NCBI GenBank assembly: GCA_900617105.1
Contig: UYFQ01000381.1
Location: forward strand, 1 to 64,000
DNA from: Hydrurus foetidus
Lineage: Eukaryota
Reading direction: 5' to 3'
DNA: 64,000 nucleotides
Numbering within the stretch: position 1 is the stretch's first letter; the number at the start of each line of letters is the position of its first letter. Positions 3,001 to 36,037 of this stretch are shown here, piece by piece. The notes under the pieces were generated by a model, which was not told the DNA's origin, searched no databases, and worked only from the letters and a program-made list of their open reading frames with translations. Both the position numbers and the translations under genes were made by a program.

Positions 3001-3836
3001 AACATTAGCTTACTCTAAGGAGGAAAATGCTATTGTTGAACGTATGAACAAAGAGATTAACCGTCACATCCGATCACTCACATACGACAACACTTCATTA
3101 GAAGATTACAAATTAGCTTTACCTTTCGTTATGAGAATAATTAATTCAAATCATAGTGATCGTTTAAAGATATCTTCTGCACAATTACTGTTTGGTAACT
3201 GTGTTAATCTTGATCGTGGTATGTTCCGTCCAATTGACGAAGTTCCTCCTTCAAAGAAATCTATGTCAGTCTATATGAGTAACCTTCTCAAGACACAAGA
3301 TAGTCTTAGAAAAGCAGCTGCTAAAGAGCTTCTTCGCACTGACTTACTTCATATGACACATAAAAACAATTACAACATACGGATTTCCAACCCGGAACGT
3401 ATGTATTGGTACATTACCGTACAGGTCACCCGCCTACACGTCTTCATACGTTCTGGCGTGGTCCTATGAGAGTTATTTCCGGATCAAACTCAAGGTTTAC
3501 CCTTTATGATCTTATCTCTCATGTCGAAAAGAATATCATGTTTCAGATATGAAACCTTTTCTTTTTGATCCACTACGTGTTGAACCATTAGACGTTGCTC
3601 GTCATGATTATATGGAATTTTATATTGAGAATATCCTTGAACATCGTGGTGACTTACAACGCAAAACTTCGTTAGAATTCCTTGTCAAATGGTTAGGTTA
3701 TGCCGATGAACACAATTCATGGACATCCTATGCCAATCTTCGTGATACCGAAAAATTACACGAATACTTGACATCTAACAATCTTCAACGTTTAATACCT
3801 AGAAAGTTTACAAACGTTGTAGATACAAATATATAA
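1..3836 (+). CDS. Gag-Pol polyprotein of Gypsy-1 (partial; two apparent 1-nt deletions in A-runs near 3365 and 3530)
   Basis: CVGCGRSNHTISVC knuckle (101-165), LIDTGS protease, FVIDYRNLN and YIDD RT, TDASDYGIG RNase H, HNSMVGH..CPQC plus DFVGP/SDNG/VERMN integrase, FLVKWLGY..NSW chromodomain (3549-3836). Confidence 0.93.
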
Positions 3837-4166
3837 TACTAAACAATATCCATGATGGATTTCAACCCTATTTTTGTTTGTTGTCGGTCAACATTCTTTT
3901 GGGAGTTTTTAGTCAGTAAGAGTCTGACATAATTGTTTAGATATTATACCCCGACTCTAAGGAGTGCCGCCGATGAAAATCGTGTCGACAACATTTTGAT
4001 TTTCATATCCACACATACTACCAAATCTTTGACGATAGATAGGCGTATGGGATCCCTGAATAATTTGAAGTGGCACCTTTTTCAAATGAGCTATACGTTA
4101 CCACATGTATTTCCACTCATATTCATTTTCTTTCACTTAACTTAAATTTTAAGGAGGAAGGAGTAG

Positions 4167-4439
4167 TGTAGCCTAGCACGTACGTTCACCGTACACTTTA
4201 TATACGTTTGTATATATTCACGTATGTATATAATTCACGCACCCATAGTCTATTTTCATCCACATCAACTGTCCACCGGTAACGGACGCTCATCAGCATC
4301 AGCACCCTTGTAGCCTATCGTTTGTGTCTGTTGTTAGCTGCTTGCTCGCTTCTTTCACAAACTGTAACTAACCTAACAGTTTACTCCAGCATACCGTCTT
4401 TACCCGGATTCTTCGTACTCGAATCCGGCCGCGACTACA
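4167..4439 (+). repeat. 3' LTR of Gypsy-1 (273 bp)
   Basis: Directly after the PPT; TGTAG...CTACA inverted ends; partner LTR not in window. Confidence 0.8.
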
Positions 4440-4532
4440 GTTCCATAATATCCAACAGGTTGCAGCATTGATTGTAGTGACCGCTGACCGCGCACAACAC
4501 ATTCGCTTTCCGAGAATAATTCACATTCCTTG

Positions 4533-4765
4533 TGTTGACGGATCTCAAGTTTCGAAGTCGCGTACAGCCTCTCGCAGTACGTGTATCGTGGATCGCTTGG
4601 TCAAGACTCGTAAAATAAGCTTGGTGTAGTCAGTAATCACTTGTTAATTGACTGTGCTTCATCCCTGCTGAAGTCCCCGAGTCCCCTTTAACGCAACAAC
4701 AACATTCAATCATACACTACAGTTGAAGTATTCAGTGACGATGCACGGATCCATTCATCGTCTGT

Positions 4766-4814
<49 letters not shown>

Positions 4815-4890
4815 ATAATCCGTACGTCCGTACGAAAGCATAAGTACACTGATTGTGTTCGTGCCATAAACTCAGATATTATCTCCAACA
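4533..4890 (-). repeat. 3' LTR of Copia-1 (358 bp, contains (CA)22)
   Basis: Near-identical to 9831-10178 plus 12241-12252. Confidence 0.95.
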
Positions 4891-4955
4891 CACCTATGCC
4901 ACATCACAATCAACTCTATTCACGCATCACGCATATGTCTTTAATTAAATGCTGT

Positions 4956-7900
4956 CTAAGCTACTATCTCTTGGTCCCATCCGGTAAGCGCCTGTCTCTC
5001 CGACTTGAACTGTGCCCCCCCCCCGCAACGGCTTGGTCAGCATATTGGCGTACATGTGCTTAGTTCCAAGGTGCCGCACTCTCGCCTCGCCCTGGTCCAC
5101 ACGCTCCTTCAGCCAGAAGTACCACACGCTCCTTCAGCCAGAAGTACTTGATGGCGATGTGTCTTGTCCTCTCTGCGGCTGACCGTCCCCTTTCTATGAG
5201 TGACATACACGACATGTTGTCCTGGTACACTGTCACGGGTCCACACGCATGCCCTTGCCCTATGATAAAGTGTCTCAAGTGTAAGGCTTGGTTAGTAGAA
5301 TCAGACAGTGCGACCAGCTCTGCCTCTGTACTAGACTTCGTCACAATCTGTTGCTTCGCTGACTTCGAGTGCACCGCACCCCTACTCCCCACCACCACAC
5401 AGCTCCCCGTATGTGATCTCCCGTCCGGGTGTACCCCGTACGCTGCGTCGATCAGCACGCTCACTTCTATCCCCTTCGCCCCAGGTGCGAACACCACTCC
5501 TCTGTCCTTGGTGGCATTGATGTACCTCAGCAGTCGCTCCAGCTTCGCCAGGTCATCCTCTGTGCACCGTGTCACTCGGGTCGCAAGGAAAGCCACGGCG
5601 GTCAGGCAGTCTGGTCTCGCACGCTTCGCAAGGTACAGTCCCTTTGCCACTTGACGGTGGAATCGGACGCGCTCCTCCTCGCTCGCCATCGCCGCACTCT
5701 CCCTCACGTCAAAGAGTCCCTCTGTCGCTGGTGATCTCGCACCCCCCTTCGTCCCGCTTTCTTTGAGCATGTCTTCCACGGATCCCGTCATCGACACGCG
5801 TGCCATACCTGTGAATGAAAGGTCGAAAACCATCCCTAGGTAGTTCACTATAGGGCCATGCTTCCTGGTAATGTCGCCGTACCTTTTTATCAGACCGGTT
5901 GCAACCGCCTCGATCATAATCCCATCGATGCTCGTCACCATCAAGTCATCCACGTGCACGGCGATGGTACATTGCACTCCATGCTCGTTGTACTTGTTGA
6001 ACACACACGTGTCGTGTGCGTTCGGTACGTACCCCATTTCGGACAGTCCGACCTTCAGGTTCTCGTACCACAGCGCGGCTGACTCCACGCACCCGTACAG
6101 TGCCTTGTCAAGGCGCACCACGATACACCCCTTGTGGTCGACAAATTGCGCATATGGGGGCGACAGTCTCACCATGATGCCTGACATGTTTCGATCCAAT
6201 CGCATGTGCACCGAGAGTCCCGTGGTCATGTCCGCGTTCAGAAAAGCCCCGCTGATGTCAATCACCGTGATCCTCCTCCCCTCATGTGCGGCTATGCTCA
6301 GCAGCGTGAAGACCGAGCTCGTTGCTACTGTCGATGCGGACAGGTCGTCGTACAGGTCGCGATCCTGTTGATCCCCTCCTGCGACTAGTCTTGCCTTCAA
6401 CTTCTCAAACTCCCCGCTTGCAAGGAACTTCTCCTTCAGAAACATACTAGACCTGATGATCCTCTTTTTCTCCTCACATGACAGTCCCTTCACGTCGACC
6501 GGCTCCCAAACCTTCTTGTCGATCATCTGCCTGAGCTCTTTCTCTATCACACTCACTGCTGCATCGCCTCTCGTTCGCAGCGCCTCACTGACCGATATGT
6601 TGAGCACATGATCTCCCCAGTCTGCACCGTTCCCCTCGTAGTTCCGTGTAAGCAGTGCCGAGCCACTCCTCATCCTGAAGAAGTCCATCAACTCGTGCCT
6701 GGTGACGCCGTGCCCCATCGGGTTCCGTGGCACGTCCAGGAGACGCGCTGCGTGATCCAGTGCGTCCCTCCCATTCCGCTGCTCTTCCACACCCTTGTCC
6801 CCTGCTGTATAGTCCACCGGCACTCCGCTCGCGTCGATCTCGCTTGCGTATGTCTCTTCGTGCTCGCGTGGCCCTGCTCGCATGCGGCTCATGTTCTCAA
6901 CTAGGCTGTCCATCTCACAGTCCACGTGCTCATGCTCCTCATGCTCCGCAACTCCAGGCTGCTCTACATCCTCACTGTGTGCATCCATGTCGTTAACTGC
7001 GTCACTGTCGCTCTGCTCATACTCACCCCCATGTCCGTGCTGCACGCCTTCACCATTGTCCATCTGATCTGGCTCGTCCACGTTATCAAGTGGCAGGACT
7101 GCAGGGTCGACTCCATCGTTCACTTCGGGTTCTATGGTGTCCGGGAGGTCACTCACTGCGCCTGCGTCCTGCGCATAGGTTGCTGGTTTCGTGTACAATT
7201 CCCCCTTACCCTTGACTCTACCGTCGGCCAGTGCGAGATCGTTCAGTCGCTTGATGACCGACTCCGGCATCGGGAGTATTCGGAACTGATCACGGTTGAC
7301 CAGATGCCCTGTTTTGAGCGATAGCATTCTGACGGACCCAGTACGATTCCCAAGGGGGAGCATCACCACACAGTCCTCGGTTCGACTCTCCATTCCTGAA
7401 TCAGTGTTAGTAACGGTACACTGTGCGTAGTCTCCGAATGAACAGCGAAAATCCCTCTTACCATCAGGCTTCCTACCGATAAACGCCTCTCGGGGGCTGG
7501 GGCCCCATTCTCGTAGTCCAGCCTGGATATACAGTACAGTACACACATGGCGATACCCACGGTCGACAATGTGAACGGTAGATGGTACGCTACATGAGAT
7601 CGTACTCGTTCCTTAACAAGCCTGATTTTTCTTTCTATCCTAGCCACGTGCCCGCCAGCTCCGCTGATGTCCACTTCCACCCCAAGTTTTCCTAACTCGT
7701 CGACGAGGCTGACCACTGCGCTCTCTCCGTCGCTCATGATCACGGAGGCTCTAAAGTTTTGCGAGGCGAGGACGCCAAGAAATGGCTGATTCCAAGCTTC
7801 ACCTGAGCTGCTGTCCTCGCTGGCTTCTTCAGATCTGCTGTATTGAGACTATATGCAATAGTTAGACCTAGTGGAGTAGCCACCCCGACTAGAATAGCTA

Positions 7901-9806
7901 ATTTATCTAAATACATAATGTCGATCGACAGGACCTGATCTCTTTGCAGTATTTTTGTGCTCACGGTGATGTCTGCGACAGCAGTAGCTCGCTTGGTAGT
8001 CTTCCCTTTCAGGGAAGCTATATCCTTCCCCCATATCGCTTCAGCGATCTGGAAATCTCTCGCGCTGACCTCGAAGTTGCTCCCACTGTTGATGATCGAC
8101 ATCGCCTGCTCCACTGTCGGGAACCCCATCCTAGCAAGCATCTCCCTGGCTCTCCTAGCCTGCTCCACCTCACGCTTCGTGAATGCTCTCAGGTTTTCAG
8201 TAACTGTTGCCACCAGGGCTCGATCGTTCATGAATTCTCTCCAGTCGCAAGAGTAGAATCTACCCTCGCTCCCTGCGACATGCTTCCTTCCAAATCGATA
8301 CACGCTCTCGCTCCCCTTAGGTCGCAGGGTAAAGCAGTCACTCAGGTAGTCGTATCTTATAGCAGCTCCCGAATCGACTTGTGACGCAAATGACAGGATG
8401 TTGGCCGACGCTGCTCCACTGTAGTAAACAGTTCCGAACTCCCCGAAGTTTCCTTCTTGATCGACTGAAACGCCTCCCCTCTGCTCGATCCCAGTTACTC
8501 GCACTTTCTTGTCGGTCACTCGCACGTCGGTGAGTAAATCCTTGTTGCTGAAGATGTTCAGCGAGGCTTCATTGTCCAGTAGTACATCGTACTTTGTAAA
8601 GCAGCATACCTCCTGTGCTGCGACCAGTGCTATACCCCACTCACTAACCTCACCCTCGTACTCACTGTCCGACTCTGTCGTCGTGACGTGGACTTTCTCA
8701 ACTGACAGTTTCCGTTGTGGACAGTTCCTTGCGTAGTGTCCCTTCAATTCACATTTGAAGCATTCGACATCTGCTAACGATTTCTTACCGGTCCCTCCTG
8801 CTTTCCCCGCTTTCTTCTCCGGGTCATTGGAGGCGATAACGTGTGCTCCTTCTGTAACGTACGCTGCGTTCGCACCGGCGGGTGCTGGTGCGGCTGCTGG
8901 TATGGGGTCTCTTCCCTCGTTCCATTGGTTCGATACGTGGAAGGCTGAGGCGAGTGTGTTCGGGAACGCATCCGGTTTACGCCTTAGTGCGTCATGCTTC
9001 ATATCGCCCATCATGACCCCGAACCTGCGGGGATCGAGTTTGCCGAGGAAGTCGAGTGCGCGCTTCGATTCCGATACGGCTGCGATCCCCATAGCGAGGT
9101 TCGCCGTCACCTGTTCGTCAAAGCGATTCTTGAAGGTTACTAAATGCTCTCTCTCACCTTGTCTCATAGACGCGTATTTCATCTCCTGTTGGTGCTGATT
9201 GTACTCTACCAGTGCCTCATCTGCACCGTACATGTGCGTGAGGTGAGTTCGCTCGATCAGTGTCCATAACAGGACGCAGTCTAGGGTGAGATACGCCGTC
9301 CTGTACTCCTCTTCCTCCCTTACTCTGCTCTGAGATATGAGCGACATACGCTTCCACATCATGGGGAAGACCGTACGTTCGTTCTCGTGTTGTGTCTTCA
9401 AATCTTTCTTCCTCTGAATGTACTCATTCTCTCTGAATTTCGCACGAGATTTCTGTGTCGCTTTGCGTTGCCTTTCTGATTTCGCCAGTCGCACCGCAGC
9501 GCGTGCGGCTTTAGCGGCGGCTGCTGCTGCAGTTCGCACCTGGTCTACCGGACCGTTGACGACCGGTACCTCTTCGTCGGACTCGTCTGAACTTTCCGAA
9601 GAAGAATCTGAGGGATAATCCTCGTATGATAACTTCGGAAGTTCGTATCTCACGCCAGTGGTGAAGAACATCCCCACGATTCCGTACAGTTCTGTGACGA
9701 TCGTCTGCATATGTTCTCTCCACTTGATGACGTTGCCGTGTTTGCCGTGTTGGAGAATGCACTCTTCTGCACTCTTGAGGGCTTCTACAGCGCGTTTGGG
9801 AGGCAT
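4956..9806 (-). pseudogene. Copia-1 Gag-Pol, disrupted (frameshifts near 7770 and 7510, 25-bp tandem duplication 5097-5146, altered C-run near 5015)
   Basis: CFKCELKGHYARNC knuckle, LLDNEAS protease, SIDIMY/SDGE/IERKIR integrase, KARLVAGG, LYGCVES and HVDD RT, DAAYG and SSTEAEL RNase H; colinear with Copia-2. Confidence 0.9.
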
Positions 9807-10071
9807 GGAAAATGCCTAGCCAGTCAATTATGTTGACGGATCTCAAGTTTCGAAGTCGCGTACAGCCTCTCGCAGTACGTGTATCGTGGATCGCTTGGTC
9901 AAGACTCGTGAAATAAGCTTGGTGTAGTCAGTAATCACTTGTTAATTGACTGTGCTTCATCCCTGCTGAAGTCCCCGAGTCCCTTTCAACGCAACAACAA
10001 CATTCAATCATACACTACAGTTGAAGTATTCAGTGACGATGCACGGATCCATTCATCGTCTTCACGCATGT

Positions 10072-10114
<43 letters not shown>

Positions 10115-10178
10115 ATAATCCGTACGTCCGTACGAAAGCATAAGTACACTGATTGTGTTCGTGCCATAAACTCAGATA

Positions 10179-12238
10179 ACGTAAAGCTCGGATAGCTTAG
10201 TACCGGAAGGCTCAGGAAATCGCGAAGATCCCCGTAGTGTAGCTTGGCACTCAGGAAATTTCGAAAACTGAGTTAAACGTTCCTGAGTCAACCGATAGAG
10301 AGATATGCTACTTATATTCTCCTTAGAACAGCAATTGAGCAAGATGATGAAGAAAGTGAGCACCTTTTTCCCGGTTGTCTCCAAGGAGATGCACGCCGCA
10401 AGATCAATCGTTTCAAATTTGATCGATGATGAGAGGGTAGCCGCTAGAAGAGAAGCGAAAGCGAAAGCTGATAAGGCAAAGAGCGATCGAATTCTTGAGG
10501 CAAACGCACGATACAACAAAATAAGGAAAAGGAAACGAGAAGAAGCAAAAGCGGCTGGTTTATTGGTTGATCCAGTCATGCATGCGATAGACAATATCTT
10601 TCTAGATGTCGCCGAGCCAGAGGTAGCCGACAAAAAGGTTAGAGTTCAGTTCTCGAGGCCCAAGAATTGGGCTGTGATTGCGGAATTTTACGGTCAGTGG
10701 GGGAAAAGCAAAACGTTGATGGTTTTTCAAGAAGAGTTTGAAGGTCGCAGTGATAGGTCTGCAGATCAGGCTTTAAGGCAGTGGCTTGTCGACTTCCGAT
10801 CCCAGAAGCTAATCATCGCTTCGAATAGGGCTCCAGCCTATGGGACTGCTATCGATAACTTGTTACTGGTAGAGACGAAGACCCGAATAGCAGCAGGGCT
10901 CCCTACGGATGATACTACGCTGCGACTGATTCTTGTCGGACTTCTTGAATCGCATGGCAAATCCGATCTACTGGAGGAAAATGGTGGCAAGAACTCGTTC
11001 CAACATGGATGGGCCTGCAGATTCTGGAAACGCCACAATCTCGTAAGCAGAGCCGTGACGACTAAGATGCGACTACTGCCAGGAAACTTTGCTGCTTTAG
11101 AGGAAAACTATATCACTGTCGCAGCACAAATGATACGTGACCACAACGTTCCTCCTGACTTAGTCTATGGGCAGGATGAAACGAACGCTCAATTTGTATC
11201 GAGACCAAACAGGACTCGAGCGGAAAGAGGTTCCAAGCGTGTACGGTTGCTCGGAGTTGGTTGTGAGAAACCTCAAATAACCGTAACCTTTACACTGAAG
11301 GAAACGGGAGAAGTCGTCGGACTACACCAACTAATCTTTGGCGGCAAGACAAAGAAGTGCGAACCGCAAAAGCCACCGCCTGCAAATACTTACTACGATC
11401 ACACCGAAAGTCACTGGCAGATGCCAGCTACGTACATTACCTACTTGGCTAAGGTGGTTGTACCGAACAAAAATACCACTATCGAACGCTTGAAAGTACC
11501 ACTCGACCAGAAAGCGATCGTCGTTCATGACCTTCACTATTCCCATAAGAACGCTGCAGTCCTCGACTTTATGAAGGAAAATAAGCTGCTTTCACTGTAC
11601 ATACCTGCAGCTTGTACAGACGTTATGCAGACTTGTGACACGGTTGCCAACAAGCCGTTCAAAGTCGGTCTCAAAGCGGCTTTCCGTGATTATCTCCACA
11701 CGGAGTACGGTAAGTGGATGATTGCAAATCCGGAAGAGGAGGTCCGAGGACAGTGGAACCCGAAGTTTACAATGGGAGCGCTTAAGGAACAGATCACAAG
11801 CTTTGTTTCGATTGGCATGGACACACTGAAGACACCAGAGATGAAGATTACGATAGCGGAAGCCTTCGGTAGAGACAGCCATTTCACAATCATTCGGAGT
11901 GCAGAACGTCAAGCGCTTGTAGCACATAATCAAGACGCAAATATGATTGATGAGGGTGAGGAGCCTGAAGTTCCAGGAGAGAATATTGCTGTTGACACTG
12001 ACCGCGCATTTGCTGCATATGCCGGCTCTGACTCAGATAACAGTGACTTGGAAGATTTCGACTTTGATTAGATTTGTCATAATGTCGTGATTGCATCTGA
12101 CTTTGTGAAAATGAAGTAATTTAAGATATTATACTTGATGAACATGGATCACACCAATCCTATATGCACAGCTCGGCACTCAGGAAAAAAAAGTCCAAGA
12201 TCCTGAGTTAAAAATCCTAAGCTATCCGAGCTTTACGT
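10179..12238 (+). mobile_element. Autonomous-looking pogo-family (Tc1/mariner-related) DNA transposon
   Basis: Perfect 22-bp TIRs ACGTAAAGCTCGGATAGCTTAG / CTAAGCTATCCGAGCTTTACGT; TA TSD at 10177-10178 and 12239-12240; subterminal CTCAGGA/TCCTGAG motifs. Confidence 0.96.
10305..12071 (+). CDS. pogo/CENP-B-like DDE_1 transposase (DD35D)
   Basis: Intact 588-aa ORF; FQHGWACRFWKRH HTH-like motif, GQDET, HDLHYSH and QTCDTVANKPFK catalytic motifs with 35 residues between the second and third Asp; acidic tail. Confidence 0.92.
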   Translation: MLLIFSLEQQLSKMMKKVSTFFPVVSKEMHAARSIVSNLIDDERVAARREAKAKADKAKSDRILEANARYNKIRKRKREEAKAAGLLVDPVMHAIDNIFLDVAEPEVADKKVRVQFSRPKNWAVIAEFYGQWGKSKTLMVFQEEFEGRSDRSADQALRQWLVDFRSQKLIIASNRAPAYGTAIDNLLLVETKTRIAAGLPTDDTTLRLILVGLLESHGKSDLLEENGGKNSFQHGWACRFWKRHNLVSRAVTTKMRLLPGNFAALEENYITVAAQMIRDHNVPPDLVYGQDETNAQFVSRPNRTRAERGSKRVRLLGVGCEKPQITVTFTLKETGEVVGLHQLIFGGKTKKCEPQKPPPANTYYDHTESHWQMPATYITYLAKVVVPNKNTTIERLKVPLDQKAIVVHDLHYSHKNAAVLDFMKENKLLSLYIPAACTDVMQTCDTVANKPFKVGLKAAFRDYLHTEYGKWMIANPEEEVRGQWNPKFTMGALKEQITSFVSIGMDTLKTPEMKITIAEAFGRDSHFTIIRSAERQALVAHNQDANMIDEGEEPEVPGENIAVDTDRAFAAYAGSDSDNSDLEDFDFD

Positions 12239-12442
12239 TATTATCTCCAACACCTTGCAACAACAACTTCTTGCAACAACAGTGGAGTGTGGAGTGCTGT
12301 ATTATTTATTTCTGTTGTAGCTGTAGCTCTAATACAGTAGAGAAGAAGACAGCTCAACCTGATACCTATTACTGCTGGGCCGTGCAGCAAAGGCAAGTGT
12401 TATTGAAGGATATTACTTGGGGTGATAAATTACCATTCTCCA

Positions 12443-16463: not shown

Positions 16464-16653
16464 TATTCTACTGCACTGTCATCCAATGTCTTGTTGCTGT
16501 GCGTAGTTATCAGAGAAAATAATTATCAATTAAACTGCATCAATTGGGCCATGAAAATGAAAAGGCTTTACATCATGAAAAACGAAAGTGTGATGAAAGA
16601 TGGTCAAATATTTCGCGCACACACGAGCCGGAAGTGTACCGTACCATATAGCT

Positions 16654-16846
16654 CAAGGGTCGTGTTTAATGCATTTGTCGTTTTTAATCGGGTACCAGCC
16701 CCGCACACAACAACACACAGCATTTTTCATGCTGAGCGGTCCCCCTGGGGAATGTTTTATTTTTCAGTCATGAAAAATGCTGTGTGTTGTTGTGTGGGGG
16801 GCTGGTACCCGATTAAAAACGACAAATGCATTAAACACGACCCTTG
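16654..16846. mobile_element. MITE (about 193 bp) with about 80-bp TIRs
   Basis: Inverted arms 16650-16731 and 16769-16850 with one mismatch; ends CAAGGG...CCCTTG flanked by AGCT on both sides. Confidence 0.85.
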
Positions 16847-17036
16847 AGCTGTGTTCACTAAATGCCAACAATCCCGACAGAATTCAGGCAGGAATAATCA
16901 TGGAGTGTTCTCTCGGATACCTCGAACTGATTTATCAGGAGAATCCTCATCTCGCCACCAACCTGATCGATCACTTTATTTCATGTACTCATTTCTCTGA
17001 GTGATTTTTCGTGGAATACTCGACTTGAGAATAGTT

Positions 17037-20553: not shown

Positions 20554-20754
20554 CGTTACAGTATATACTGTTTTTCGAAGTTGTTCACTGGAATGCTCAG
20601 TGAAGACTAATGTAGAACAGCTGAGAGCCGAGCTGAGACGATAGATATGTTGGAGATATGACGACTTCTCGCTGTACCTGGTCCCATATTTGGGACCGTT
20701 TACAGGTAATTATCATTTTTGAATAGATCTTGTCGAGATAAGTCTCGTAGTGGT

Positions 20755-21494
20755 CCCAGTGGTGTCAAGAACCAAGTCGGAATCAAAAACCTAGTTGGAT
20801 TTTGGTAGCTACGAGAACATTAATGAAAAACTTTCAAAAACCCTTTCTGCGAAATGACTCCGACTAAACAAACAGTGGCGCATCCATTTCTGAAGTCAGA
20901 AAATTTCAATACAATTTTTTTTGCTCTCATTTTCCCACAGTTTCAGAAGTGCTGAACTCAAATTCGATTACGAATGTGTTTTCGAAGAAAGTTAATGACA
21001 AAATCCAATCCACAATGATTGAATTAGTGTAGACCTATAAAGGTTTGACTTAAAACGGAAAAGTTCTTGAGATGCAATGACTTCAGTCATAAATTTGGGT
21101 GTTTCCCCACGAAATCAGTGAAAAATCACGTCTGAAAACCGTGAAAACACCCAAATTTATGACTGAAGTCATTGCATCTCAAGAACTTTTCCGTTTTAAG
21201 TCAAACCTTTATAGGTCTACACTAATTTAATCATTGTGGATTGGATTTTGTCATTAACTTTCTTCGAAAACACATTCGTAATCGAATTTGAGTTCAGCAC
21301 TTCTGAAACTGTGGGAAAATGAGAGCAAAAAAAATTGTATTGAAATTTTCTGACTTCAGAAATGGATGCGCCACTGTTTGTTTAGTCGGAGTCATTTCGC
21401 AGAAAGGGTTTTTGAAAGTTTTTCATTAATGTTCTCGTAGCTACCAAAATCCAACTAGGTTTTTGATTCCGACTTGGTTCTTGACACCACTGGG
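20755..21494. mobile_element. 740-bp foldback/MITE: two 350-bp inverted arms with a 40-bp spacer
   Basis: Arms 20755-21104 and 21145-21494, one mismatch seen; termini CCCAGTGG...CCACTGGG flanked by GT on each side. Confidence 0.9.
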
Positions 21495-21650
21495 GTCCTG
21501 AACCTCTTCATATCGTGTTATTTAGGGTGTACGAAGGAGAAAGAAAAAAAAAATCGTGGATCCCAGATCTGGAATTTAAGATCATTTTAGAAAAAGAAGT
21601 GATCTATCAGTGCACGATCAATTGACAGTTTGCTCACTTGAATAAGATTC

Positions 21651-22211
21651 TTACCGAGAGAAATTGTCGATGCCTTTTTCTGAGACGTAATGCTTCATCC
21701 TTCTATGGGAGCATGGGTAACCGTCTTCGACAGTCAGTGATTTGATGAAATCATTCAGATTTTCCAGATCTTCGTCAGTAATCTGAGTCCAAGATGAATG
21801 ACGTCAATCGAAATCCGAAGCAAAATACTTGGCGGAGGTATGCCTCACCTGGTTTCCGTTCAGACGCGCATGGTCAGTTCTTTTCGATTTTCGGTCTCTG
21901 CTCCTTTTGATGCGAGTCGTTCCGATTTTGAAGACTGCAGCCAGCATTCGCTTCGTAACTTTTTTCGTGGTGATCAAGGTGGACAAGAATCCATCAGCCA
22001 TGATTTTCTGGCCGTTGTCTCCATTGTTCAGTTTCGCAAAGAGTTCAATTGCTTCCTCCGCCTTTGCAGGACCACCCATGCAATTCTGGAAATCCCTCAG
22101 GTAATCTACCTCCTCAACATTCCTCGGATTATCTTGAATATTGATCAATCTACCTCTCTCGCCTTTGCAAACTTTGGGGCGGTAGTCCACTGGTTCTGAT
22201 GTGTTCGACAT
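21651..22211 (-). pseudogene. N-terminal transposase remnant of the 20660-22389 element
   Basis: ORF 22211-21804; a GTGAG...CAG intron joins ..LNGNQ to ITDEDLENLNDFIKSLTVEDGYPCSHRRMKHYV; no catalytic domain follows. Confidence 0.5.
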
Positions 22212-22720
22212 TTCAAGACAGGATGACGCTCAAATTTATGACACGCAGATGATTTCAAGTGCATATCCTGAGGTGACGACTGCTTACTACGCTTCATTTC
22301 ATCCAGCGTATCTTCCCGTTCAAAAAAAGAATTAATTGACCGAAATTCAAAAATTTTCTACGTGTAACTGGGTACAGCGAGAAGTCGTCATATCCGAGTT
22401 TATGGCACGAACACAATCAGTGTACTTATGCATTCGTACGGTCGTACGGATTATTATGTGTGTGTGTGTGTGTGTGCGTACGTGCGTGGCGACGATGGAT
22501 GGATCCGTGCATCGCCACTGAATACTTCAACTGTAGTGTTTGACTGAATGTTGTTGTTGCGTTGAAAGGGACTCGGGGACTTCAGCAGGGATGAAGCACA
22601 GTCAATTAACAAGTGATTACTGATTAAACCAAGCTTATTTCACGAGCCCTGACCGAGAGATCTTCAACAGCTGTACCGCGAGAGGCAGTACGTGACTGCG
22701 AAACCGAAGATCCGTCAACA

Positions 22721-22730
22721 TAATTGACTG
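22721..22730 (+). promoter_or_regulatory. Non-tRNA primer-binding site TAATTGACTG of Copia-2 (same sequence in Copia-1 at 9830-9821)
   Basis: Abuts the 5' LTR, lacks the TGG start, and is the exact reverse complement of LTR 22599-22608. Confidence 0.75.
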
Positions 22731-22745
22731 GCATAGGCATTCCCA

Positions 22746-25700
22746 ATGCCCCCTAAACGCGCTGTAGAAGCTCTCAAGAGTACAGAAGAGTGTACGCTTC
22801 AATACGGCAAACACAGCAACATAATCAAGTGGAGAGAACACATGCAGACGATAGTCACCGAACTATACGGAATCGTGGGGATGTTCTTCACCACTAACGA
22901 GAGATACGAACTTCCGAAAGCATCTCACAGGGATTACCCTTCAGATTCGTCATCGGAAAGTTCGGAATACGATACCGAAGAAGAGGAATCGGACGAGACA
23001 GACGCTGCAGTTCCTGCGAGGAGTGCAGCTGAAGTCGCAGCTAAAGCTGCGAGGGCCGCAGTGCGGCTGGCGAGCAGAGAAAGGAAACGCAAAGCATCGG
23101 AGAAATCGCGTGCGAAATTCAAAGAGGATGCGTTCATCCAGAGGAAGCGAGACCTCAAGACCCAACGCGAGAACGAACGTACGGTCTTCCCCATGATGTG
23201 GAAGCGTATGTCGCTTGTGTCACAGAGTAGGGTTAGGGAGGAAGAGGAGTACAAGACAGCATATCTCACATTGGACTGCGTTCTCCTGTGGACACTCATT
23301 CGAAGGACCCACCTGACTCATATGTTTGGTGCAGACGAGGCACTACAAGAATACAATCAGCACGAACAAGAGAATAAGTATTCGTCCATGAGACAAGGTG
23401 AGAGAGAACACCTAGTCACATTCAAGAACCGATTTGATGAACAGGTGGAGGCGAACATGTCCGTGGGGATCGCAGCGGTGTCCGACTCCAAACGTGCACT
23501 CGACTTCCTCGGCAAGCTAGACCCCGGAGGTTCAAAGTCATGATGGATGATATGAAGCATGACGCACTAAGGCGCAAACCGGATGCATTCCCCAGCACGC
23601 TAGCCTTAGCATTCCACATATCCAACCAATGGAACGAGGGAAACACTCCCGCACACACACCCGCGCCAGCACCGGCAGGGGTGAACGCAGCGTACGTTAC
23701 CGAAGAAGTACACGTCACCATGGCCAAGGATACCGAGAAGAAAGCAGGGAAAGCCGGAGGGGGAAGCAAGAAATCCTTGGAGGATGTTGAATGCTTCAAG
23801 TGCGAGAAGAAAGGTCACTACGCGAGGAACTGCCCTCTGAGAAAACCGTCAGTGGAAAAAGTCCACGTCACGGCGACGGAGTCGGATAGTGAATACGAAG
23901 GAGAGACTAGCGAATGGGGTATAGCGCTTGTCGCTACAGAAGAGATGTGCTGCTTTACGAAATTCGATGTACTACTAGACAATGAGGCGTCACTGAACAT
24001 ATTCAGTAACCTGGAGCTACTAACCGACGTGAGAAAGTCAGACAAGACTGTGAGAGTGAGTGGCATCGAGCAGGGTAGCGGCGTGTCGGTTGATCGAGAG
24101 GGAAACTTCGGAGAATTCGGAACGGTCTATTACAGCGGAGCAGCATCGGCGAATATCCTGTCGTTCGCATCACAGGTGGACTCGGGAGCCGAGATCAGAT
24201 ACGATCACGTGAGCGATTGCTTCACCCTGCAGCCGAAGGGGAGCACGAGGACATATCGATTCGGGAGGAAGCGTGTCGTCGGTAGTGAGGGAAGATTTTA
24301 CTCCTGTGATTGGAGAGAGGTTGATCACGATCGGGCATTAGTCACAACTGTAACCAAGAACCTGAAGTCGTTCACGAAACGCGAAGTGGAGCAGGCGAGA
24401 AGAGCTAGGGAGATGCTGGCGAGAATGGGATTCCCGACTGTAGAGCAAGCCATGTCGATCATCAACTGCGGGAGCAATTTCGATGTGACAGCAAGGGACT
24501 TTCAGATCGCCGACGCGATATGGGGGAAGGACATAGCCTCCCTGAAAGGAAAGACTACCAAGAGAGCTACTGCTATCGCCGACATAGCCATCAGCACAAA
24601 ACTCGTACAAAGGGATCAGGTGTTGTCGATCGACATTATGTATTTAGATAAATTAGCTATTCTAATCGGGGTGGCTACTCCACTGGGACTAACTATTGCA
24701 TATAGTCTAAACGCAGCTGATCTGAAGAAGCCAGCTAGGACAGCTGGGCAGGTGAAGATTGGAATCAACCATTTCATCGGCGTTCTCGCGGCGCAGAATT
24801 TCAGGACATCCGTGATCATGAGCGACGGAGAGGGAGCAGTGATCAGCCTTGTCGACGAGCTTGGGAAACTTGGAGTGGAGGTGGACATCAGCGGAGCCGG
24901 TGGACACGTCGCTAGGATCGAAAGAAAGATCAGGATTGTTAAAGAGAGAGTTCGCTGTCATGTAGCGTACCACCTTCCGTTCGTGTTGTCGACCGTGGGT
25001 ATCGCGATGCTCGTACTGTACTGTATATCTAGGCTGAACTATGAACCCACCGGTTTACGGGAACAGGGCCCCAGTCCGCGAGAGGCATTTATAGGCAGGA
25101 AACCAGACGGTAAGAGGGATTTTCGCTGTTCTTTCGGAGACTATGCACAGTGTACTGTCACTAATACCGACTCAGGCATGGAGAGCAGAACAGAAGACTG
25201 TGTGGTGATGCTCCCACTAGGGAACCGCACCGGGTCGGTGCGAATGTTATCTCTCAAAACAGGCAGACTAGTCAACCGAGATCAGTTCCGCATACTGCCG
25301 ATGCCGGAGTCAGTGATTAAGCGCCTTAACGAACTTGCGCTCGCTGATGGGAGAGCGAAAGGCAAGGGAGAGATATACGCTAAACCAACGTCATACGAGC
25401 AAGACAGCGGTGCAAAATCCGATCTCCCCGACACGATCAACAGCACTGTGAATGAAGGAGTCGACCCAGCGATACTTCCTCTCGACATCCATGACGACAC
25501 CGACCTCATTGACACGACAGGTGAGGTACAGTACGACAATGGGGGTGAACATGGACCGGGATGGCAACATGATGATGCAGCGGTGGACGATGTAGAACTG
25601 CATGGAGATATCGTTGAGTACCCACAGCCAGAACCACAGGAGCAGCCATACGGCTCCGACTACGAGATGGATAGTTTAGTCGACGACATGAATCGCATGC

Positions 25701-27595
25701 GTGCTGGACCGAGAGACTATGATGAAAAGGCTACTGAGAATATCGACTCGAGCGGAGTACCCATTGACTACACAGCGGGCGACAGCATAGACCATGACCA
25801 CAGAGGCCCCAAGAATGCACTAGACCGTGCGGAGAGATTGCTAGCAGCACCGAGAATTGTGCTTGAACGGGGAGTAGATAGACACGAGCTGATGGACTTC
25901 TTCAGAGTGAAGAGTGGGACAGCACTGCTAACCCGCAGCTACGAAGGGGACGGTACGGAGTGGGGTGATTACGTGTTCAACATATCAGTCAACGAGGCGC
26001 TGCGCACAAGGGGTGACGCGGCGGTGAGCGTTATACAGAAAGAGCTCCAGCAAATGATAGACAAGAAGGTGTGGGAACCAGTGTGCGTGAAGGGATTGTC
26101 GATGGAAGAGAAACATAGGATCATCAGGTCGAGTATGTTCCTGAAAGAGAAGTTCCTAGCGAGCGGAGATTTTGAGAAACTAAAAGCGCGACTTGTCGCA
26201 GGAGGTAACCAACAAGATCGTGACCTATATGATGACTTATCTGCACCCACAGTGGCCACCAGCTCGGTGTTCGCGCTACTGAGCATAGCGGGACATGAGG
26301 CGCGGAGGATCACGGTGATCGATATCAGCGGAGCGTTTTTGAACGCGGACATGACAACCGGACTCGCGGTGCACATGCGATTGGATAGGAATATGACGAG
26401 CATTATGACACGGCTGTGTCCGCGGTACTCGCAGTTCGTGGACCATAAGGGGTGTGTCGTGGTGAGGCTTGACAAAGCCCTGTATGGGTGTGTGGAGTCG
26501 GCAGCCCTGTGGTACGAAAACCTGAGAGGAGGACTGTCGGACATGGGATATATACCAAACGCGCACGACATGTGTGTCTTCAACAAGAGCGACGAATATG
26601 GCGTGCAGTGTACCATTGCTGTGCACGTCGATGACCTCATGATCACGAGTGTCAATGGGGCGATGATTGAAGAGGTGGCGAACGGATTGATAAAGAGGTA
26701 TGGCGATATCACCAGGAAGGATGGCCCTGTAGTGAACTATCTAGGTATGGTATTCGACCTTTCAATCGTAGGTGTTGCCAGAGTGTCAATGACCGGGTAT
26801 GTCGAGGACATGCTGAAGGAGAGCGGGACAATAGGGGGTGCAAGGACACCGGCCACAGAGGGGCTATTCGACACGAGGGATGATGCCGAACCAACAAGCG
26901 AAGAGGACCGAGTCAGGTTCCACCGCCTGGTGGCCAAGGGTCTGTACCTCGGGAAGCGTGCGAGGCCCGACTGTATGACCGCTTTGGCATTTCTCGCGAC
27001 CCGAGTGACGAGATGCACAGCGGACGACCTGTTGAAGCTGGAGCGGCTGCTCAAGTACATCAATGCGACGAAGGACAGAGGGATAGTATTCGCACCGGGG
27101 AAGCAGGGGATCAGTGTTAGCGTGCTGATAGATGCAGCGTACGGAGTACATCCGGACGGCAAGTCCCATACCGGAAGCTGTGTGGTGGTAGGAGAGCTGG
27201 GCGCGGTGCACTCGAAGTCAGCGAAGCAGCAAATTGTGACCAAGTCGAGCACGGAGGCGGAGCTGGTTGCCCTTTCTGATTCAACTAACCAAGCATTACA
27301 CATGAGACAATTTATCATAGGGCAAGGACATGCGTGCGGGCCGGTGACGGTGTACCAAGACAACATGTCTTGCATGGCTCTGATCGAGAGAGGGCGGTCA
27401 GCGGCGGAGCGCACGCGGCACATAGCGATCAAGTACTTCTGGCTCAAGGAGCGGGTGGACCAAGGCGAGGCGAGAGTGCGGCACCTGGGGACTAAACACA
27501 TGTATGCGAACCTACTGACCAAGCCGCTGCAGGGAGCACAGTTCAAGTCAGAGAGACAGGCCCTTACCGGATGGGACAAAGAGATAGTAGTTTAG
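22746..27595 (+). CDS. Copia-2 Gag-Pol polyprotein (single apparent 1-nt deletion in a C-run at about 23525)
   Basis: The 265-aa and 1351-aa ORFs join where Copia-1 reads LDPRRF; knuckle, PR, IN, RT (HVDD) and RNase H (ANLLTKPL) all present. Confidence 0.93.
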
Positions 27596-27662
27596 ACAAC
27601 GTTTAATTAAAGACTTATGCATGATGCGTGAATAGAGTTGATTGTGATGCGGCATAGGGGTG

Positions 27663-28001
27663 TGTTGGAGATATCCGAGTTTATGGCACGAACACAATCA
27701 GTGTACTTATGCATTCGTACGGTCGTACGGATTATTATGTGTGTGTGTGTGTGTGTGCGTACGTGCGTGGCGACGATGGATGGATCCGTGCATCGCCACT
27801 GAATACTTCAACTGTAGTGTTTGACTGAATGTTGTTGTTGCGTTGAAAGGGACTCGGGGACTTCAGCAGGGATGAAGCACAGTCAATTAACAAGTGATTA
27901 CTGATTAAACCAAGCTTATTTCACGAGCCCTGACCGAGAGATCTTCAACAGCTGTACCGCGAGAGGCAGTACGTGACTGCGAAACCGAAGATCCGTCAAC
28001 A
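27663..28001 (+). repeat. 3' LTR of Copia-2 (339 bp, contains (TG)10)
   Basis: TGTTG...CAACA, preceded by purine-rich GGCATAGGGGTG. Confidence 0.96.
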
Positions 28002-28091
28002 AGATACACACATTGGCGGAAATAATGAAGAAATAACGCGGTTCCGGTATAATATTCCGGTACACCCAACATTTTGACGTCATGTTACATG

Positions 28092-28348
28092 CGAAACATA
28101 CAAAAAACGAAACCTCAATCCTCGAATCCTCAAAACACGGGTTTCCAGAATTCCTCAAATCGGTGAAACCGAACCAGCCACTTTTTCGTAATTTTGAGTT
28201 TTGAGGTTTTCAAATTCCTCGTTTTGAAGCCCTCGGATCGAGGAATTCAAAACGAGGAATCCAAAAAAACACGAGGTCTTGGGTCCAAAAGGGCCGAGGA
28301 TTTTCGGAAAACCCGTGTTTTGAGGATTTTTTATTTTGTATGTTTCGA
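28092..28348. repeat. Degenerate inverted repeat, probable old MITE
   Basis: CGAAACATACAAAA...ATCCTCAAAACACGGGTTT versus AAACCCGTGTTTTGAGGAT...TTTTGTATGTTTCG. Confidence 0.55.
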
Positions 28349-32279: not shown

Positions 32280-32734
32280 GACCGACACAAGTTTGCAACC
32301 GAAGGCCTCACGCAGCGAATCTCGAAGCAGTGAAGCATCATAACGGTAAGATAGACAGCTTTTCAACAGTCTCTTCTGCAATAATTCTTCAGTTTCTTTT
32401 CTCAGCTGGTTCAAGTTGGTCACACTGAAATGGAATATATTTATCCAAAATCAGAATTTAATTATTACGATCAAATTCCGGTAAATCCGTTCAAAAAAAT
32501 CCGTACTTTCCGCGATTAAATTCTCGGCATGCTCGCTCAATTTTTGGGAGACTTCTTCAAAATAATTTCCATTAGAATCATCACCTGAATTGAGGTATAC
32601 GCATCAAATGTTTTTCATTTCCCATGAAAATCTGGCGATATCCATCAATTTTACATTCTCTACGTGCATGTGTAGTAGTCGACCACCAGTATGCATCTAA
32701 GACAGCCGTCGTTCCCTGTGGAAGGCAGTTTGCG

Positions 32735-35700
32735 ATGATGTTTCTTGCAGAGATTGCATTGGGTGAAGAAACTGGATTCGACGATGAAGACATTTCTGAA
32801 CCATCATCTCCTCAATCAGCCATAGAGGAAAATGGGGATGATGTAGGAGATCCATCTCAATCCAACCGACGGTTTCGTGGGACAGGAGCAATTTGGAGTG
32901 ACTGTTTGGACGAATTGGGAAACGATTTCATTAGTTACAGTAGTTTGGATGAAGTCCAAAAAGATGCTGCTGAGTCAAACTACTCTAAGATAGGTTCATC
33001 GTCAACTGATGTTCACACTTTTGTGTGTCGCATCAAGGGTTGCTATTACAAAAAGAAGTACCGGAGACTGGGAGATTCTGGATCGTTTGTGTCTTACTCT
33101 ACCGGCGACAATACTCATCCCACCTCTGAGATATTGAGTGATCAGCGTGGTCTATCGGGTGAACAAAAGCTGATCATTGAGCAAGCCTTTGCTGAGGATC
33201 GGAAATCTTCCCGAGATATTCTTGCTTTTTTTCGCTCCAAGAGGTCCCTATCCGATGAATCAATGAAGGCGTCTTTCCCACCGGATCCGGAGATCTCAAA
33301 ACTCAATAACTACATTCAAGCATTCAAGAAAAGGAAGTCGTCGAAGTACAATCCTACTCCTAACGACTTAGAGGAGTGGTGCATTGGACATGGTCCATCG
33401 ACGGTCAATGCAGAAGATGAAGGGACTTTTAACACTCCTTTTGTGCTTAATTACATGTTGGTGAGAATAAAAGATCTAACTTTATGATATGACTACATTA
33501 TACAACAATTCCTCAAATTCTGAACCTTTTTTCTTATTCACTAGGATACATCGGTAGCTCTGAAACCTCGTTTCATTGCTGTCATATCTAGCTATAGGCT
33601 GCTCTATCATGGTATTGATTCTTCATCACCTACAGCAGACGTTCGCAACTGTCTACAAGCTGATGGAACGCACAAAACAAACTCACATGGCTATCCGACC
33701 ATCATCGTTGGTAAATTCAGTAAAACTGTTGAGCTAATATAAATGCACTTTATATAAGTTGTACATTTTGTGTACAACTAATCTTAACATATCATATCAT
33801 TTCAGGTGTCTCAGATATGGCGAGAGTATTTCATCCATTGGCTATTTCAATGAGCACGAATGAGGACGCAATGATGTTCCAGTTTATAGGTAATATATAT
33901 TTTATTATAGTTATCTATATTTTTTCTAATTTTAATATTCTTATATTATTCAGGTGACTCTTTGGTTAAATACATTCCCAACTTCTTACCATCGAAATTA
34001 ATGAGCGATGCAGCTCCTGCTATCTTCAACGGCCTATCAATGGCATATCCTAACATTATAAATGGAAGGTGTTACTTTCATATGATGCAATGTATGAAAA
34101 ATCGCCATTACACGGACGAGAATTCAAAAAAGTTGTTCTTAAATGATTTAAGATCTTTATCAAAGTCTCATTGTCAGGAGCATTTTGATGTGTCAGTAAA
34201 TCTATTTTTAGACAAGTACCGTGATCATCAGGACGAACACATTAAGTTAGCGAGAGATTACCTTGAGAAGTTTTGGCTGCTGGACAGGAACAGAGGATGG
34301 CATTCTGGACTTGTACCTGGGACGGTAACATCGAATAATGGGCTTGAAGTTACAAATAGAGTATTCAAGAAAAATTTCAAAGGTTAGGCTTGATGAATAA
34401 GACAACTCATTTCATTATTATGTCCTAAACAATATTGTTGTAATAAATTGTTACTCTTAGGTGATTTAGTCAGCGGAACCGAATGTTTAGATTACACTTG
34501 TGTGTATCTACAAAATGAGTCAATATCAAGAACACGGGGGGATGTTAATTATAAAGAATACTCAATGTCAGCTAAAAAAGCTAAAGATATAATGAGGCTA
34601 GCGAAGTCGTTGGTAGAGACACACAATCTAACAAAAATACGTCCGTCAACAGTAAGGCGACAATATGTAATAATGAGAGATAATGAGATATTGAGCGATG
34701 ACAGCGCAGTTGGAATTATTAATTGTAGCAATTACAACAGATTTAAGAGTTGGGATGAGAGGGAGAGGTATCAGAAAAATGTAAGAATTATTAGTCCAGT
34801 TTCAGATGACAGGAAAGCAAATAGTCATAGCGGATATAGATGCACATGTCAAACTTATATGGATGAATACGAATGTGAACATGCGATGGCAATTTCTATT
34901 GCGAAAAATGAATTATCACAATCAATTATCATGCATATGCCGTTGGGGTTAAAGAGAGGTCCTGGACGACCAGTCAAAGCAGTGAAAGGAGCTCTAAATC
35001 CACAGATTAAAGTAAACAAAAAAAAATCAAAAATTGAGCTTTCAGATACCACAACTACACAAGGTAATGCTTTACAGTTATCATTTACTTGTTTTCCTAA
35101 ATTAACTCTGAAAAATTTACCATACATTTCATTAGGAAACGGTGATGCAATCACCATCGATTCGGAAAAGAGGTTGATATTAAAAGGTTTTGTATGGCAT
35201 AATATGTCATGTTCGTACGATGCATTATTCACAACGTTATGGATAATATATTTCTTAGGTCGAGACGAAATTAGAAAAACTTTCGATTCTACCCTACCTC
35301 TTATGGCAAAAATGTACAGAGAAATGATAGGCAATACATTGACATTCAAAGAGGCCAATGATCGAATTAGGGATACTTACTTTATTTCTACTCCAATCGT
35401 TGATTTCCGCCGAGGTGTGTTTCAAGGCGTATCGGACATAACCAGCCATCTGCTTCTGCAATGCGTCTTATCTGTTGACGAAAATGAGAAAGATTGTTTT
35501 ACATTTCAGTACAATTGCATTAAAAAATGTACAAATACATTGTGCATTGACATCTCGAAAGAAAGAACATCTGAATGTGCGTTACGTTGTTTATTTTTCG
35601 GTGTTGATGTTGATACGACAAAAACTGTGACACAAATGATTATCCAGTATTTTTCATTAGAAAACAGAAATTTCCGTTGTCATGTATGCAGTCATCAGAT

Positions 35701-36037
35701 GGTATACACAAAAATTTTAGTATCATGTCCATTGATATTATGCATATGTTTCAATGGTACCAATGTATTAAGTGAATTCGAAAAAGTAGTAGTGATCAAA
35801 AATGAAACATACGACTTCGTATCAGCATTATATCTTCTGGGACAACACTTCAGAACTAGATTTAATATTAGCAATAAAGCATACGAATACGACGGGATGC
35901 TTAATGGTGGTGTTTTGAAAGAGATAAATTCCGAAAATGCTTTCTGTGGTACCATATTTAATGTAGATAAAACAGTAATGATGGTAGCTATGTCAATCTA
36001 TTATGTAAAGAGAGATGGCAATGAGTTGTACGTATAA
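32735..36037 (+). CDS. MULE/Mutator transposase with SWIM finger, AT-hook and C-terminal USP-like cysteine-protease domain; exons about 32735-33460, 33545-33710, 33806-33889, 33954-34382, 34461-35063, 35136-36037
   Basis: ADGTHKTN..GYP, MSDAAPAI, CYFH and TSNNGLEVTN (DDE); CTC..YECEH SWIM; KRGPGRP; WHNMSCSYDA...HF...YEYDGM; GT-AG introns link the ORFs. Confidence 0.88.

Follow-up and report, generated by a model that had tools for sequence, protein, structure and literature searches.

Copia elements from Hydrurus foetidus and their relatives carry a primer-binding site complementary to their own LTR and are likely self-primed

Self-priming of reverse transcription is proven for the Tf1 retrotransposon, whose transcript pairs with the primer-binding site (PBS) through its first 11 nt and is cut by RNase H between nucleotides 11 and 12 (PMC7175516), and it requires two flanking duplexes there (PMC10085805). 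Among Copia elements, Houba/Osr-1 has been proposed to prime itself, and a plant survey predicts the same for 89% of 203 TAR elements (PMC6317226). Hairpin priming has also been speculated to be ancestral for LTR elements (PMC3601003). Priming, tRNAs and primer-binding sites are not discussed in the main text of the paper on the CoDi elements, whose supplements may describe PBSs (PMC2806351). The open-access literature, covered mostly at the level of titles and abstracts and with subscription papers outside its scope, yielded no description of self-priming in CoDi-like or protist Copia elements, and we found no experimental proof of Copia self-priming in the literature covered. The mechanism considered here is already known from Tf1 and predicted for plant TAR Copia (PMC6317226); a preliminary description of this DNA, which knew of no self-priming Copia lineage, overstated its novelty.

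We analyzed two Copia elements in a 64,000-nt stretch of H. foetidus DNA (the window). As in Tf1 and Tf2 of Schizosaccharomyces pombe (Tf1/sushi group), the PBS follows the CA end of the LTR and complements the element's own RNA 5′ end, which is a predicted one here, and there is no tRNA site (PMC7175516, PMC10085805). The pairing covers 11 nt in Tf1 (PMC7175516), 10 nt in the window (11 if counted from A22598) and 9 to 25 nt across the families described below. Unlike Tf1, a Ty3/gypsy chromovirus, the window elements have the Copia gene order, an RVT_2-type reverse transcriptase (RT) and no chromodomain, and the duplexes of the Tf1 "pretzel" were not detected; these traits are known here from sequence. 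Plant TAR elements are likewise Copia with a predicted self-primer, and the window pairing falls within the range used for them, at least 10 bp located 0 to 5 bp after the LTR (PMC6317226). Unlike plant TAR, the elements described here have diatom-associated nearest Atlas clusters and an RVT_2 match of only 79 bits, which suggests a distance between the two, in a comparison whose tree holds no TAR sequence. CoDi elements share the Copia order, the TG/CA LTRs and a gag-pol boundary with at most one stop or frameshift (PMC2806351). The fungal GalEa elements, in a Copia branch that includes CoDi, have no tRNA PBS, and CTAATTAGT after their LTR resembles the TAATT start common here; the GalEa site is palindromic, with its partner 12 to 41 nt downstream and no LTR complement found, whereas the partner here lies upstream in the LTR (PMC5445492).

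Both window elements are full insertions (Table 1), element 2 at 20648-28001 between AGATA duplications and element 1 on the minus strand at 12252-4533 between CAAGG duplications. The coding region of element 2 matched Pfam zf-CCHC and RVT_2 (residues 911-1129, 79 bits), with integrase-like motifs at residues 397-497, upstream of RT-RNase H; compared with P0001, a relative with a single ORF, it carries one frameshift, near 23525. The protease, integrase and RNase H regions were assigned from their motifs. Pfam rve had no match in the element coding region, and Chromo had none in the Copia element. The TG...CA LTRs, the 5-bp target duplication and the purine tract before the 3′ LTR are further Ty1/copia traits, and the window elements are Ty1/copia (Pseudoviridae) elements, not members of the Tf1/sushi group. 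Their nearest Atlas clusters are Copia RTs (score, 0.97) with Bacillariophyta as the commonest taxon, the phylum being known for only 3 to 4 members of each cluster, and the lineage is probably related to CoDi. The 20 listed sequencing runs with element DNA are mostly from freshwater and sediment samples; none of the 20 is an RNA run, which has no bearing on expression.

Table 1. Features of the two Copia elements in the window
Feature	Position	Strand	Basis
Element 2 5′ target-site duplication AGATA	20643..20647	+	equals 28002-28006
Element 2 5′ LTR, first 11 nt (TGTTG start), severed by insertion	20648..20658	+	two 5′ pieces equal 3′ LTR, 339/339
DNA-transposon-like insertion, 1732 bp, ~20-bp terminal inverted repeats, TA duplication, in U3 of 5′ LTR	20659..22390	.	
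Element 2 5′ LTR remainder, CAACA end	22391..22720	+	100% identity to 3′ LTR
Initiator/transcription start, predicted (A22598 favored, A22600 alternative)	22596..22600	+	inferred from family CA/TCA pattern
Self-primer arm CAGTCAATTA, predicted	22599..22608	+	paired in minimum-energy and centroid folds
U5 stem-loop between primer and PBS, predicted	22661..22713	+	fold only
PBS TAATTGACTG, abuts LTR, no TGG start	22721..22730	+	exact LTR complement
gag N-terminal frame	22746..23543	+	80% identity to residues 1-228 of P0001
Zinc knuckle-PR-IN-RT-RNase H frame, Copia order	23441..27595	+	Pfam zf-CCHC, RVT_2; motif positions; tblastn
Polypurine-tract-like AGGGGTG preceding 3′ LTR	27656..27662	+	same motif before TGTTG in most relatives
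Element 2 3′ LTR, 339 nt, TGTTG...CAACA, arm copy at 27880	27663..28001	+	
Element 2 3′ target-site duplication AGATA	28002..28006	+	
Element 1 5′ target-site duplication CAAGG	12253..12257	-	partner 4528-4532
Element 1 5′ LTR start, severed by insertion	12239..12252	-	
Tc5/pogo-like DNA transposon in element 1 5′ LTR	10179..12238	+	~22-bp inverted repeats, TA duplication, ORF 10299-12071
Element 1 5′ LTR remainder	9831..10178	-	97% identity to 3′ LTR
Element 1 self-primer arm, predicted	9943..9952	-	sequence match and fold
Element 1 PBS TAATTGACTG	9821..9830	-	sequence match
Element 1 gag-pol region, several frameshifts	4891..9806	-	
Element 1 3′ LTR, 358 nt	4533..4890	-	

The LTR of 339 bp given in the preliminary description is intact at the 3′ end of element 2, but both 5′ LTRs are split about 10 to 14 nt from their start by insertions. 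Without its insertion, the element 2 5′ LTR equals the 3′ LTR at all 339 positions, so the insertion is young or the LTRs have been homogenized. Different TA-duplicating DNA transposons occupy the equivalent site in the two 5′ LTRs, 10 to 14 nt in (TA before TCYGAG), and both 3′ LTRs are free of insertions; this coincidence could reflect an insertion hot spot, targeted integration or a selective advantage of inactivating U3. The element 1 transposon gave weak matches to DDE_1 (E = 0.004) and HTH_Tnp_Tc5 (E = 0.03), under the curated cutoffs. Near-perfect inverted repeats occur at 20755-21494 (350-nt arms, 40 nt apart), inside the element 2 insertion, and at 16650-16850 (82-nt arms, 37 nt apart).

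Elsewhere in the window, a Ty3/gypsy chromovirus with identical 262-nt LTRs (53590-59306) is inserted in a tandem array; its 5′ LTR is followed by a palindrome, ATATCGATAT, and TGG is absent from the LTR edge. The window also holds a decayed Gypsy chromovirus (1-4530) with 67% identity to this one, and Copia element 1 appears to be inserted in, or just after, the 3′ LTR of this second copy. The array itself, very long and AT/GA-rich with 18- and 22-nt spacings (about 36200-64000), is possibly a subtelomeric or centromeric satellite. Three open reading frames at 32594-36037 (297, 158 and 546 amino acids) resemble a mutator-type transposon remnant, and a Pfam scan of two of them gave no match.

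The 10 nt directly 3′ of the element 2 5′ LTR, TAATTGACTG (22721-22730), are the exact reverse complement of CAGTCAATTA at 22599-22608. Element 1 has the identical pair on the minus strand (9821-9830 and 9943-9952), as the preliminary description had stated, and the gap between arm and PBS is 112 nt in both elements. The LTR end at 22720 is set by the identical 3′ LTR (27663-28001) together with the 5-bp target duplication. When we simulated 339-nt LTRs with a Markov model, 42 of 200,000 contained the exact PBS complement (2.1 × 10−4), close to the earlier estimate of about 3 × 10−4, and none of 300 other internal 10-mers had a complement in the LTR. At the PBS position of the Gypsy element at 53590-59306, complementarity to the LTR was at most 6 bp. 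Copies of the PBS complement were found in element LTRs only and nowhere else, and the window PBS is not palindromic. Across the arm-U5-PBS region, 165 of 192 alignment columns are identical between the two elements, with both arms within conserved blocks, and we therefore treat the pair as one observation, in agreement with the earlier caution that the copies are not independent; the U5 divergence also claimed for them exists but is modest. No tRNA genes were found in the 64-kb window, and an Rfam scan of 20600-28100 gave no match. Contigs from 4 of 20 runs showed at least 40 variant sites across 22391-23000, and none of the 40 listed lies in either arm, a result not counted as evidence.

For independent families, we turned to relatives. 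A protein search returned 1,997 relatives, and an alignment of 67 long ones among the 120 listed served as the query for metagenome loci. The best 79 of 553 confirmed loci were used, 53 of them with a region upstream of gag and 26 without. Many loci are collapsed circles that run without a break from the end of pol through the LTR and PBS into the start of gag, and since most relatives are collapsed metagenome contigs, their LTR ends were inferred from the CAACA terminus. For every CA in a locus, we looked for an unbroken Watson-Crick helix beginning at the next base, with its partner 30 to 500 nt upstream, and compared the longest one per locus with 300 dinucleotide shuffles. This all-CA statistic with its matched shuffle null replaced an earlier rule, the last AACA before the ATG as the LTR end, which was dropped for often lying beyond the true end. 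For family counts, 36 of 41 helix hits that had an LTR-like end were clustered with the two window elements at 70% RT-RNase H identity; the other 5 were set aside because their site was not at an LTR-like end. A quick unrooted tree, used for spread only, held 54 loci or window elements and 8 proteins, without named elements and without L036, which was omitted as short. A second set comprised 26 loci on contigs filed in prokaryote bins, 7 of which had an LTR interior and leader (chosen by eye), two of the 7 being close kin of first-set loci. Among viral contigs, 26 pattern matches yielded no relatives.

Some features of these loci were noted in passing. Copia contigs in bacterial genome bins (L081, L083, L086 to L091, L095, L099 and others of the second scan) are most likely misbinned eukaryotic DNA. 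A single in-frame stop between gag and pol in L009, L016, L020, L047, L069, L076, L077 and L087 suggests readthrough in part of the lineage. The last RNase H motif reads AN..TK rather than AD..TK in the window (27503-27526) and in L002, L019, L021, L024, L038, L045 and L059, with the D kept in most other loci, and this change may bear on primer cleavage.

A helix of at least 9 bp was found in 41 of the 53 loci, at least 10 bp in 32 and at least 12 bp in 21, the longest being 25 bp. Shuffle means were 4.7 to 7.9 bp, and 26 of 53 loci reached a shuffle P of ≤0.01, P values that are overstated since the families are kin. In 22 of the 41 loci the helix is preceded by CAACA, which forms an inverted repeat with the LTR start TGTTG, and in 12 more by TAACA, TATCA or CTACA. 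Helix-positive loci are spread over the whole tree, and in the second set all 7 testable loci have a 9- to 16-bp helix at the LTR edge; in L090 (family of L089), where the repeat end fixes the LTR end, a 16-bp match begins at the next base. The 17 loci that were not kept are the 12 of 53 without a 9-bp helix and the 5 set-aside hits. Six were positive with another end motif, a longer loop or the second-best site (L017, L033, L038, L064, L067 and L069), L024 and L051 have a helix with one mismatch, L004 and L020 are ambiguous, and L034, L045 and L075 are badly delimited. L012 has the PBS of L011 with a drifted arm, and no helix was found in L026, L036 and L076, two of which may be truncated. 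Two further candidates, L101 and L105, proved not to be LTR junctions, and a 12-bp CA-started helix in L087 lies within U3 and was excluded from the count.

The preliminary description had proposed covariation of PBS and LTR in diverged families as a test, and the outcome favors self-priming. The 32 families, with a median pairwise RT-RNase H identity of 45%, have 31 distinct first PBS 9-mers, each matching its own LTR with a helix of 9 to 17 bp, whereas a PBS pairs with another family's LTR over at least 9 bp in only 5 of 992 pairs. Where arms could be aligned, compensatory changes were seen at one pair between L068 and L095 and at two pairs between L019 and L021. TGG was present at the PBS, within the 0 to 5 nt from the LTR that define a canonical tRNA PBS, in 0 of 32 families (window family included) and 0 of 7 second-set loci. 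This last result would also be expected if a host tRNA half or fragment matched the PBS, as in Osser, Bianca and FunCo1, and the LTR match were secondary; half-tRNA priming does occur in Copia and gives PBSs without TGG (PMC6317226, PMC5445492). We consider such a primer highly improbable, as each family's PBS tracks its own LTR over up to 25 nt and changes with it, and the close relatives L057, L063 and L066 differ in their PBSs, so that a single tRNA cannot fit them.

Another possibility is that the complementarity is a functionless by-product of template switches that copied the LTR into the PBS position, or of collapsed assemblies. Most relatives are indeed collapsed contigs, and L012 appears chimeric or decayed. 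The window elements, on the other hand, are full insertions with target duplications and two LTRs, the helix keeps a constant position at the LTR edge and the Initiator across the tree, and an inverted match cannot arise from assembly collapse, all of which leave a by-product with very little probability. The PBS-LTR complementarity is a real, lineage-wide feature.

We then asked where the LTR arm lies relative to putative transcription starts. On its far side, the helix ends no more than one base from the A of a CA in 28 of 32 families (background, 15.8%); for TCA the figure is 23 of 32 (background, 5.5%), with 5 of 7 in the second set, compared with 4 of 57 placebo helices (≥8 bp) from the same regions. 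This A takes part in the helix in 18 families and stays unpaired in 9. Initiators of the TCA type have been described for diatoms and oomycetes (PMC4686930, PMC3599244). The predicted Initiator of the window elements reads GCA or ACA rather than TCA, and A22598 is unpaired; a start there would give an 11-nt primer, equal to that of Tf1, and fits the unpaired-A pattern. Judged by the family pattern, a start at A22598 (or A22600) is more likely than one at C22599. The self-priming geometry suggested earlier, with the RNA 5′ end as the putative primer, draws strong support from the covariation and the Initiator-like helix end. When the leader was folded from A22598, the helix was closed in the minimum-energy and centroid structures of both elements (z ≈ −2), and the mean helix pair probability was at least 0.5 in 29 of 32 folded leaders. 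Flanking duplexes of the Tf1 pretzel type reached a P of ≤0.05 in only 2 of 32 families each (mean z ≈ −0.15) in a crude energy test that could miss short helices, and a helix of the U5 stem-loop type between primer and PBS was not enriched across the 32 families.

A selected helix could instead be regulatory, acting in PBS masking, translation, dimerization or packaging, with a host RNA or another route providing the primer. The helix ends 24 to 25 nt before the gag ATG in the window and near the ATG in most families, there was no sign of the flanking helices on which Tf1 cleavage depends, and the PBS starts with YAATT in 15 of 32 families, which could reflect a trans-acting partner or perhaps a cleavage or initiation preference. 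A regulatory helix, however, would have no need to run exactly from the LTR edge to the start site or to exclude G-U pairs (G-U pairs extended the helix in 0 of 32 families, a figure partly built into the selection), and the 31 different 9-mers leave no site common to the families for a host primer. We regard a purely regulatory helix as unlikely, if less so than a tRNA fragment or a by-product.

Taken together, these Copia elements very probably use their own transcript's 5′ end, rather than a tRNA, to prime reverse transcription in a Tf1-like manner, a reading drawn from sequence and from analogy with Tf1. RNA polymerase II would start at the CA Initiator in the 5′ LTR (A22598 or A22600 in element 2), and the first 10 to 11 nt are predicted to fold onto the PBS next to the LTR, with about 112 nt of R-U5 in the loop between them. 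By analogy with Tf1, the element's RNase H would cut just past the paired segment, leaving a 3′-OH at the LTR edge for minus-strand synthesis. Plus-strand synthesis may then copy the primer, so that each cycle would renew the PBS from the RNA 5′ end, a step we put forward with less confidence than the others. Tf1 reportedly keeps its primer.

Rewriting of the PBS from the primer, with a C templated by the cap, is our proposal for both the unbroken Watson-Crick match and an excess of C past the helix. Directly beyond the helix, a C is present in 17 of 32 families (7.3 expected), compared with 10 of 57 placebo helices, and in 3 of 7 second-set loci; this is a post hoc signal, which hints at a capped primer as the template from which the PBS is recopied. 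The reverse transcriptase of MMLV can read a cap (PMC6885630). L079 and L094 are close relatives with a common arm, the L094 PBS is one base shorter, and C follows both, as though transcription had begun one base apart in the two and each PBS had recorded its own start. In its fullest form, the proposal is that a deep aquatic-protist branch of Copia abandoned tRNA, primes from its own capped 9- to 25-nt 5′ end without a pretzel and rewrites its PBS each cycle, leaving a cap-templated C as a footprint, and that it either evolved self-priming independently, as a third such origin, or retains an ancestral hairpin priming, with the GalEa TAATT maybe a relic. We offer this wider scenario tentatively, at somewhat less than even chances.

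For annotation, the pairing supplies a practical rule, as it reveals the start site and the LTR end of these elements, and pipelines that demand a tRNA PBS will overlook them. Should the CoDi elements of cultured diatoms have the same feature, a first experimental test of Copia self-priming would become feasible. LTR elements rely on the host for priming, and tRNA fragments can block them at this step. If the mechanism is as proposed, a large protist Copia lineage would escape dependence on host tRNA at this step, and its existence bears on whether self-priming had several origins or is ancestral, as has been speculated for LTR elements (PMC3601003).
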